Below are positions 58,078-61,000 of a DNA stretch of 62,276 bases, in pieces (the stretch's first letter is position 1; each line of letters starts with the position of its first letter). Both the position numbers and the translations under genes were made by a program. A model generated the notes under the pieces. That model was not told the DNA's origin and searched no databases. It saw only the letters and a list, made by a program, of their open reading frames with translations. The stretch is from Euryarchaeota archaeon UBA602 (lineage in GTDB: Archaea > Thermoplasmatota > Poseidoniia > Poseidoniales > Thalassarchaeaceae), in NCBI GenBank assembly GCA_002498455.1, contig DAHO01000052.1:25527-87802 (forward strand), in the 5' to 3' direction.

Positions 58078-61000
58078 GTCGAGACGTAGCAACAATCCCG
58101 AAGCGAATCGCTTCCATCAAATTCAGTTTGATGGATCCGAATGAAATCAGAAAGATGTCTGCGGTTGAAGTGAAGACCGCAGACACCTACAAAGACGATG
58201 GTCATGCATATCGCCAAGGTTTGATGGATTCCCGCATGGGTGTCATCGAACCTGGTGTACGATGTGAAACCTGTGGAAACAAGCACGATCAATGTCCCAG
58301 CCACTTTGGGCATATCCAACTGGAATTGCCAGTTGTACACATCGGGTTCACCGCTTTGCTGAAGACCGCTCTCAAATCTACTTGCAACACTTGCAGTCGT
58401 GTGCTATTGCACGAGCGAGAAGGTACACATCCAATTGATCCTGAGAAGTCTGAGCAGGATTACTATCGTACTCGTGTTTACGATGTAATCCAAAAGCACG
58501 GTGTCGGTTCAACGGAATTCAAGAAGATTATCAAGGAAATCACAAAAATTTGCTCTGGAGCCAAGCGTGCAGTCTGTATGCACTGTGGTGCAGAGCAAGG
58601 TAAGATTGTTCTCGATAAGCCAACTACCTTCAAAGAAAAGAAGATGGACAAAGGTGAGCACAAATTGAATGCTCGAGACATCCGTGAATGGTTGGAGCGA
58701 ATTCCAGATGAAGATTTGATTTTCATTGGAATGGATTACAATGCTAGCCGTCCAGAATGGACAATCATGCGTGTACTACCGGTTCCTCCGATTACGGTCC
58801 GACCATCCATTACATTGGACAGTGGTGACCGAAGTGAGGATGACCTGACCCACAAGCTAGTTGACGTTTTGCGAATCAATCAGCGCTTGCGAGAGAACCG
58901 TGACGCCGGTGCACCACAATTGATTGTTGAGGACTTGTGGGAACTTCTACAATACCACATTACAACATACTTCGATAACCAAACCGCGGGAATTCCACCG
59001 GCTCGCCATCGTTCAGGTCGCCCACTCAAGACCTTAACCCAGCGTCTCAAAGGTAAGGAAGGGCGTTTCCGTAGTAACTTGTCTGGTAAGCGTGTAAACT
59101 TTTGTGCTCGAACAGTGATTAGCCCTGATCCAAATCTAGGCATCAATGCGGTTGGTGTCCCTGTTCAGTCCGCTAAGGAATTGACTGTGCCCATTCGTGC
59201 TACGGGACGAAACCGAGAACAGTTGCGTCAGATGATTTTGCGAGGCCCCGATATTCACCCAGGTGTCAACTACATTATTCGCGGAACTGGGCATCGAATT
59301 CGAATCACTGACAGAACCAAGTTCATGAATGCGGGATTCAGATGCCACAATCCCGAGTGCCACTCTGGTGATGTTGAGCGTGGAGAGCCTTACCCAGGCC
59401 TACGTCCTGATCTCAATGAAGTGCTACCTGCGCCGAACTTCCTCCCGGGATTGGAGATTGAGGAAGAAATCTCGCGCGTGGATGGCGAAACTCAGAGTAA
59501 ATGGGTCCCAAACCTTGAAGCCACACTTTGCAACCTCCGTGGCGAGGATTCCAATGGAAAGCCCCTACCTGCAGGCGACCCTAGGGCAATCATCCATGAA
59601 CGCTGGGTCTTTGAGCGTGAAAATCCGGGTGTACCATTCCCTGCTGAACTTGAATGTATTTGCCCACACTGTGGAAGTCCGATGATTGATGAAGAAACTC
59701 GGACTAAGGTAGAGGACCGACTATCGACAGTGGATTTGGAGGGCAATCCTCGCCCAGGTATGATTGTCGAGAGACACTTAATCGATGGCGACGTTGCAAT
59801 CTTCAACCGTCAGCCTTCACTGCACCGAATGTCGATGATGGTTCACGAAGTCCGTGTCATGCAAGGCAAGACATTCCGATTCAATCTGGCTGTCTGTACA
59901 CCGTACAATGCTGATTTTGATGGTGACGAAATGAACCTCCACGTAATTCAGTCTGAAGAAGCTAGAGCTGAAGCGAAGATTCTGATGCGTGTTCAAGAAC
60001 ACATTATCACACCTCGATATGGTGGTTCAGTCATCGGAGGAATTCACGATCACATCTCTGGGGCATACTTGCTCAGTAACAACAACCCATTCGTCCCCAA
60101 ACCCATTGCACTAGATGTGCTGGGTCAAATCGGCTGGTCTGGTGAACTGCCAGATGAGAGCGTTGTCGATGGTGTCGTTGGATATTATGGGCGCGAGTTG
60201 TTCAGTCTGATTATCCCCGATGGATTCAGTTTGAGATACACCAGTCGAAGCCAAGATGAGGTGTCGATTGAAGGTGGGCGTGTCCTAAGTGGGACTCTCG
60301 ATAAGCGGGCCATTGGTGCTGAAGATGGTCGTCTATTGGATGCAGTTGTTCAAACACATGGTACTGCTACCGGTGCGAAGTTCCTCAACGATATGACAAA
60401 ATTGACGATTGGGATTTGCACAGCATTGGGCTTTACCACAGGCATTGATGATGAAGATTTGCCGGCTGAGGCTCGTGAGTTGATTGCTCTTCGAAATGCT
60501 GAAGCCAGTCAAGCGGTCGATGCCGAACTTGAGAAGTTCGGCTCAGATGGCCGTAAGTATGAGACGCGTCCTGGTCGGACACCGTTGGAAACATTGGAAG
60601 AAAATATTCTCCAAATCCTAGATCAGTGTAAAGCTGAGACGGGTAACATTGCGAAGGAACACCTTGCAGATGATAACCCTGCTGTGATGATGGCCGTATC
60701 TGGTGCTCGTGGTTCCATGGACAACTTGGCTATGATGGCTGGTTCAATTGGTCAACCAAAGGTTCGTGGAAAGCGTCTTGAGCGTGGTTACAATGACCGG
60801 GTTTTGTCTCACTTCCAGCGAGGAGTAAAAGGTGCGAAGGAGAAAGGATTCGTTGCCTCGTCCTTCAAGAGAGGCTTGGAGCCTACAGAGTTCTTCATGC
60901 TCTCGGTCTCAGGTCGTGAATCGTTGGTCGATACCGCTGTTCGAACCAGCAAATCCGGTTACATGCAGCGTCGTCTCATCAATGCGATGGATGATCTCAA

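Follow-up and report, generated by a model that had tools for sequence, protein, structure and literature searches.

An acidic four-cysteine domain inserted in the dock region of RNA polymerase subunit Rpo1N/A' of the archaeal order Poseidoniales

Background

What is the long extra segment in the gene for RNA polymerase subunit Rpo1N (A') of a marine archaeon, how did it arise, and what might it do for the enzyme? The question is raised by rpoA1, which lies on a stretch of 62,276 nucleotides (the window, to which all positions below refer) from Euryarchaeota archaeon UBA602 (contig DAHO01000052.1, positions 25,527 to 87,802). This genome belongs to the family Thalassarchaeaceae of the order Poseidoniales (Marine Group II), uncultured organisms that rank among the surface ocean's most abundant archaea and whose transcription machinery, to our knowledge, has so far been assumed to be textbook. 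A sequence-only reading of the window, made without database searches, had described a zinc-ribbon-like insertion of about 145 residues at 59322-59753, upstream of the NRQPSLH and NADFDGDEM motifs and in the dock, a surface that TFB-family factors use in every archaeal and eukaryotic polymerase.

Results and Discussion

An in-frame domain insertion in Rpo1N/A'

The 1027-residue product of rpoA1 (Table 1) contains all five Pfam Rpb1 domains in order, each above its cut-off, with the Rpb1_2 domain split into two stretches and the catalytic NADFDGDEM motif in place. In a phmmer search of all Protein Data Bank (PDB) chains, Rpo1N of Pyrococcus furiosus (8cro_A, 910 residues) was matched with an E-value of 7e-285; residues 8-416 of the window's subunit align to residues 4-399 of the P. 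furiosus protein, and residues 562-729 to 409-579. Between the two blocks there are 145 residues in the window's subunit versus 9 in P. furiosus, a net gain of about 136 residues. The sequence-only reading had thus placed the insertion correctly to within one codon, the alignment extending it to 59756, and the segment has no homology to sequence in other A' subunits.

The insertion site lies directly after a conserved NY(I/V)(I/V)R...R(I/V)R(I/V) hairpin and 15 residues before FNRQPSLH. G429 of yeast Rpb1 stands opposite G562 in the alignment, which places the insertion in the equivalent of the Rpb1 418-428 loop, upstream of both catalytic-region motifs as had been claimed. We take this loop to be part of the dock, following the RNA polymerase II (Pol II) domain map reported by Cramer in 2001; by the same map, the segment just before the insertion (aa 395-416) is presumably the dock hairpin. 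That segment is kept in insert-bearing and insert-free relatives alike.

The insert is free of stop codons and in frame in more than 100 genomes, and its ratio of nonsynonymous to synonymous substitution rates (dN/dS) is 0.02-0.10, a combination far beyond chance. Its guanine-plus-cytosine (GC) content of 0.51-0.52 matches the flanks. Marine metatranscriptome contigs cover 59361-59862, including the 3' junction, without joints or indels, although such libraries may also contain DNA and the contigs cover only parts of a 1.2-kb stretch. The segment is a true insertion of a whole domain into the dock region of Rpo1N/A' that is translated and evolves under selection.

Table 1. Positions in the window of the insertion, its landmarks and other additions to the polymerase
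Feature	Position	Strand	Evidence or remark
rpoA1 gene, RNA polymerase subunit Rpo1N/A', 1027 aa	58074-61157	+	Open reading frame list, translation, Pfam, phmmer
Conserved segment before the insertion, aa 395-416, HPGVNY..R.R.RI..	59256-59321	+	Aligned to P. furiosus 378-399 and yeast Rpb1 399-417
Insertion, aa 417-561, 145 aa, acidic alpha/beta domain	59322-59756	+	Alignment, AlphaFold2 model, charge, dN/dS
Cysteine knuckle 1, C424-x4-C429, in invariant GFRCxNPxC	59343-59360	+	Both cysteines 100% conserved in 87 sequences
Variable surface loop, aa 430-443	59361-59402	+	8 aa shorter in several Poseidoniaceae genera (L023-L025, L027, L029, L030)
Proline-rich loop APNFLPG, aa 453-459, candidate contact surface	59430-59450	+	At least 98% conserved in 87 sequences
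Cysteine knuckle 2, CPHCxSP, C530-x2-C533, CPxCG-type	59661-59681	+	100% conserved; sole sub-threshold Pfam zinc-finger matches lie here
Conserved C-terminal segment VEDRLxTxD, aa 546-554	59709-59735	+	Alignment; conservation in 87 sequences
Universal core resumes: GMIVERH...FNRQPSLH, aa 562-584; NADFDGDEM, aa 612-620	59757-59933	+	Alignment, motifs
RpoB, 73-aa insertion, aa 659-731	56371-56589		Versus 3 residues in P. furiosus Rpo2 (630-634)
RpoB, second insertion, aa 148-175	54838-54921		About 15-20 residues versus P. furiosus Rpo2
RpoH and A'', near-identical N-terminal modules	53800-54081, 61157-61470		Both start MVVKS, then Arg-rich tethers

Conservation, selection and charge

Conservation was counted over 87 distinct insert sequences from 118 loci. 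The sequence-only reading had pointed to cysteine motifs CHNPEC (aa 424-429) and CICPHC (aa 528-533); their positions are right, and C424, C429, C530 and C533 are conserved in 100% of the sequences, but C528 is usually valine, and C486 varies too. Besides the four cysteines, some 45 positions reach at least 98% conservation, among them those of GFRCxNPxC, APNFLPG, NL..(E)D, RW, CPHCxSP and EDRL, and variation in length is restricted to a few loops. Between lineages the insert is 52-81% identical and its flanks 72-97%. In close pairs with unsaturated synonymous sites (these being saturated between genera or families), dN/dS is 0.024-0.096 for the insert and 0.009-0.048 for the rest of A'; purifying selection on the insert is therefore strong, though two to three times more relaxed than on the core.

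All 35 insert sequences of the alignment are acidic, with net charges of -11 to -20 and isoelectric points (pI) of 4.3-4.9. The window's own insert has a net charge of -14 and a pI of 4.6, versus +4 and 8.3 for the rest of A'.

Distribution and origin

Relatives were sampled from three families of the order Poseidoniales (designated f1, f2 and f3) and two sister families of the same class (f4 and f5). Over the three Poseidoniales families, 40 of 41 relatives gave full-length A' matches of about 1030 residues. With the insert alone as query, it was found in 40/40 genomes of f1 and 63/65 of f3, versus 0/43 of f4 and 0/2 of f5. Both f2 genomes give A' matches across the site, and the one aligned f2 sequence (L022) has the insert. 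In five f4 and f5 genomes the A' open frame is 892-982 codons long, and the alignment stops at residue 414 or 415 and restarts at 560, with about 9 codons between.

The same picture emerged from a sample of the phylum, in which one continuous A' match was obtained in 19 of 19 Poseidoniales genomes and the window's own genome, and in none of the 108 other Thermoplasmatota genomes with a match, which represent more than 40 families. In the 30 cases among the latter where both alignment blocks were listed, the blocks are 15-33 nucleotides apart. A scan of one genome per GTDB species identified 412 loci that encode the insert; nearly all named records among these go under Marine Group II, Candidatus Poseidoniales or Thalassarchaeaceae, or bear just a generic euryarchaeote label, and the window is closest to MED-G33 / MGIIb-P. 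The insert was not found in any genome searched outside Poseidoniales. Being present in all three Poseidoniales families and absent from the sister lineage and every other sampled Thermoplasmatota family, the insertion is specific to this clade, and it arose on the stem of the order.

Six Thermoplasmatota genomes of one further family (f17: G183, G239, G244, G253, G273 and G281) differ in that the second block of their alignment begins some 20 residues earlier, at query residues 541-543. Because this block reaches into the VEDRL...PG segment, roughly the final 20 residues of the insert may descend from an ancestral short dock loop rather than from inserted sequence.

Predicted structure

Residues 412-566 were modelled with AlphaFold2 from a 35-row alignment. 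The best model has a mean predicted local distance difference test score (pLDDT) of 82.8, with about 90 over model residues 10-135, and a predicted template modelling score of 0.74. The elements follow one another as a short strand at the first cysteine knuckle, a short helix, a long beta-hairpin, two helices, the second knuckle and a final strand. When a wider fragment (aa 338-642) was modelled, the mean pLDDT was 48.9: the insert, at 75-85 and with the same element order, was the sole confident part, and the core flanks, at 25-35, were too poor to orient the domain on the core. Since the insert alone keeps its confidence and element order in the wider fragment, it behaves in the models as an autonomous alpha/beta domain would. 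Some 100 residues between the knuckles would fold into a compact alpha/beta module, built from three helices and a beta-hairpin. The four invariant cysteines, which lie at the two ends of the domain, suggest a single metal site clasping the base of the insert rather than a ribbon; C424/C429 and C530/C533 probably bind one zinc ion, joining the two insert ends at the host loop.

No known fold was recognised. Against the PDB, Foldseek gave no match better than an E-value of 0.3, and VIA-align, run over 48,161 representative chains, none better than a Z-score of 2.2. There was likewise no match in BFVD (best E-value 0.23) or in the ESM Atlas, where template modelling scores were at most 0.43 and the top entries were pieces of RpoA'. 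The PDB holds many bacterial RNA polymerase structures, and the BEAN, HABAS and SBHM folds of bacterial polymerase insertions gave nothing above the Foldseek and VIA-align values just stated. When 1.84 billion representative proteins were searched with a profile, 26 matches came back, of which two are longer RpoA' sequences that carry the insert in the same place and the seven short ones examined are fragments or frameshifted pieces of RpoA'; no free-standing or foreign copy of the insert was seen in this search. Small bacterial Tim44/Zn_Ribbon_1 proteins came up in an ESM feature search (feature score 0.92, with recognition below the tool's mark), but a Tim44-like or NTF2-like domain with a zinc ribbon finds no Pfam or fold match, and its order of three helices and then a curved sheet of several strands does not fit the predicted element order. 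As far as these tools see, the insert has no detectable sequence relatives and no known fold.

Neither a classical zinc ribbon nor an intein

The spacing of the cysteines had been called typical of a zinc ribbon, which the analysis does not bear out. Two CxxC-type knuckles are indeed present, and like classical zinc ribbons (the B-ribbon of TFB/TFIIB, TFS/Rpb9, Rpo12) the insert has a second knuckle of the CPxCG type and probably one zinc ion. In classical ribbons, however, the knuckles are 10-30 residues apart on a three-stranded sheet, whereas here they are about 100 residues apart with the predicted alpha/beta domain between them. The Pfam matches to Ogr_Delta, DNA_ligase_ZBD and Zn_ribbon_8 all fall below their cut-offs, and no ribbon fold was matched in the PDB. 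By the distance between its knuckles, the insert is not a classical zinc ribbon.

A segment of about 140 residues is also in the size range of mini-inteins, and inteins are known in genes for large RNA polymerase subunits (PMC1635734). It could then be the remnant of a mobile or self-splicing element, that is, a degenerate mini-intein or a selfish insertion that is spliced out or neutral. This is very improbable. There is no Hint or intein Pfam match at E-values up to 1, and neither the sequence nor the alignment has a cysteine or serine at the N-terminal junction paired with His-Asn and a cysteine, serine or threonine at the C-terminal junction. The predicted fold has no match to the HINT structures that abound in the PDB, the GC content does not depart from that of the flanks, and the segment is fixed across the whole order, not sporadic, and under strong purifying selection. 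The Pfam results, junction residues, fold, order-wide fixation and selection together largely refute an intein.

Transcription factor B genes

The sequence-only reading had suggested looking for compensating changes in TFB. There are two TFB genes in 6/6 Poseidoniales genomes checked, including the window's own, and three in each of five sister-lineage genomes. The first, TFB1 (L047:838-1785, plus strand, on contig C9 of the window's own genome), retains a canonical ribbon, and its identity across all three Poseidoniales families is 88-99%, versus only about 71% for A' between families. Its B-reader and linker are invariant, and nearly all of its variation is in the zinc ribbon. No clear compensating change was found in TFB1.

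The second, TFB2 (L049:1459-2565, minus strand, on contig C22), is divergent, with an N-terminal extension in which a conserved RR motif lies some 10 residues ahead of the ribbon; the tail that precedes the B-ribbon on its N-terminal side is acidic in TFB1 and basic in TFB2. TFB2 is present in all six Poseidoniales genomes checked, and no TFB with its signature was found among the three TFBs of each of the five sister-lineage genomes. From its sequence, TFB2 is a plausible partner for the acidic surface of the insert.

Other additions to the polymerase

The insertion in A' has company. RpoB (1226 residues) carries a 73-residue insertion just before the THxE(I/L)xP motif, together with a second, smaller one (Table 1). 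A query consisting of the 73-residue insertion and about 20 flanking residues on each side found it in 16/16 genomes of f1 and 24/24 of f3, where it is shorter, and matched the sister families in the flanks only; it thus shares the distribution of the A' insert. RpoH and A'' have near-identical N-terminal modules. In A'', the sequence before GEPGTQ comprises about 450 residues in the sister lineage (L043-L046) versus 192 in Poseidoniales (window 61157-62275), and A'' of both lineages starts with a helix-hairpin-helix-like module. In three f4 genomes (L212, L213 and L215), the stalk subunit Rpo4 contains an insert of the form CxxC...acidic loop...CxxC, which is absent from two Poseidoniales Rpo4 genes (L211 and L216) and from the single f5 genome. 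These co-occurring additions are found among relatives and are not independent evidence.

What the domain may do

TFB recruits archaeal RNA polymerase via the dock (PMC13502027), and RNA is led along the dock towards its exit (PMC7111264). A domain projecting from the loop after the dock hairpin would stand beside both the site of the TFB zinc ribbon and the exit of nascent RNA. Because the domain is strongly acidic in every lineage, it is unlikely that it binds RNA or DNA itself. Since a conserved acidic domain at this place is unlikely to hold nucleic acid, we favour, tentatively and as a reading that might well prove wrong, a built-in protein-docking platform that would enlarge the dock and tune the binding or release of TFB. 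Candidate contacts on TFB would be its ribbon or the N-terminal tail immediately preceding the ribbon, such as the extension of the second TFB paralogue with its basic character and RR motif. A precedent for such a platform exists in RNA polymerase I (Pol I) of yeast, where a Pol I-specific helix and loop in the dock bind Rrn3 while the ribbon cavity is preserved (PMC4947163).

Several observations weigh against the docking platform. Both the dock assignment and the presumed proximity to the ribbon are carried over from Pol II structures. The mean pLDDT of the five AlphaFold2 models ranges from 51.6 to 82.8, and zinc binding is predicted from the cysteine pattern. Both TFB ribbons are themselves acidic, which disfavours simple charge attraction to the ribbon, and TFB1 is far more conserved across families than the insert (88-99% versus 52-81% identity), so that a tight co-evolving interface with TFB1 is not evident. 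The acidity may be no more than what a domain exposed to solvent would show in a marine proteome that is itself acidic. Prediction of a complex between the insert and the N-terminal 60 residues of TFB1 gave an interaction prediction score from aligned errors (ipSAE) of 0.00 in both runs, which is evidence neither for nor against binding.

The site beside the RNA exit also raises the thought that the domain acts after initiation, either as an acidic fence that steers nascent RNA to the stalk or as a landing pad for the KOW domain of Spt5, for the termination nuclease FttA/aCPSF1 or for a coupled ribosome. The conserved negative charge would suit the repulsion of RNA or the binding of basic RNA-binding proteins, RNA does pass along the dock, and the sister lineage has a different four-cysteine acidic insert in Rpo4, also near the exit, although that parallel is between relatives and may be a coincidence. 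FttA binds the mouth of the RNA-exit channel through ZBD1 of A', ZBD3 of B, the stalk and the Spt5 KOW domain (PMC11616081), an assembly that a 136-residue dock domain could reach, but the contacts listed for the solved complex do not include the dock. A role at the RNA exit or in elongation seems unlikely, though well worth keeping in mind.

Somewhat more doubtful still is a purely structural add-on that packs on neighbouring surfaces of the polymerase and stabilises the enzyme or aids its assembly, tolerated but integrated, like many lineage-specific insertions in bacteria. It would account for an insert that evolves 2-3 times faster than the core and whose loop lengths vary between genera, and the additions to RpoB, RpoH and A'' suggest a general tendency to decorate the enzyme. 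Set against it are the roughly 50 insert positions with conservation of at least 98% (among them those of APNFLPG, a motif without cysteine), a dN/dS of at most 0.1, and retention in every sampled genome of an old and diverse order; conservation, low dN/dS and retention together indicate more than passive tolerance.

A bolder form of the docking platform was also considered, in which the dock domain would be a polymerase-encoded selector of initiation factors: by reading the tail N-terminal of the B-ribbon, it would split promoters between the two TFB classes or time the release of the ribbon at promoter escape. We regard this as improbable. If true, the core enzyme itself would contain a regulatory layer for which no archaeal RNA polymerase has a described counterpart, and the fold would be new.

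Relation to known polymerase insertions

Elaborations of the largest subunits are known from other polymerases. The dock element of yeast A190 (helix alpha12a and a loop; PMC4947163) resembles the insert in being a dock elaboration of the largest subunit beside the ribbon-binding cavity; it is, however, a short helix and loop, eukaryotic and Pol I-specific, without sequence relation to the insert. It serves as a contact for the initiation factor Rrn3, and the same role for the archaeal insert is a proposal. The 'dock II' domain of human Pol I subunit RPA1 (PMC9438803) is likewise clade-specific, part of the largest subunit and a proposed platform for factor binding, but it lies in the foot, has a fold like that of high-mobility-group (HMG) proteins, is basic and has no metal site.

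The insertions of bacterial beta and beta' subunits (SI1-SI3; BEAN, HABAS, SBHM; PMC11515920) are, like the insert, clade-restricted, independently folding and placed in surface loops of catalytic subunits; their occurrence tracks the organismal tree, and the basic mechanism can do without them. Unlike the insert, they draw on known folds that recur, and no Cys4-clasped dock domain is among them. For Rpo1, the same work lists only the domains common to all archaea. No description of the insert, and none of any lineage-specific domain in an archaeal dock, was found in full-text literature searches. Lineage-specific polymerase insertions are known in bacteria; this archaeal one is dock-located, probably metal-clasped, and without detectable relatives or a recognisable fold.

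Conclusions

The co-distributed RpoB insertion and the extra modules of RpoH and A'' make the polymerase of the whole class unusually decorated. Should the insert touch TFB or an RNA-exit factor, it would offer a natural experiment in the control that the dock exerts over recruitment and promoter escape, and it would provide both a simple molecular signature for Poseidoniales and a candidate new zinc-clasped fold.

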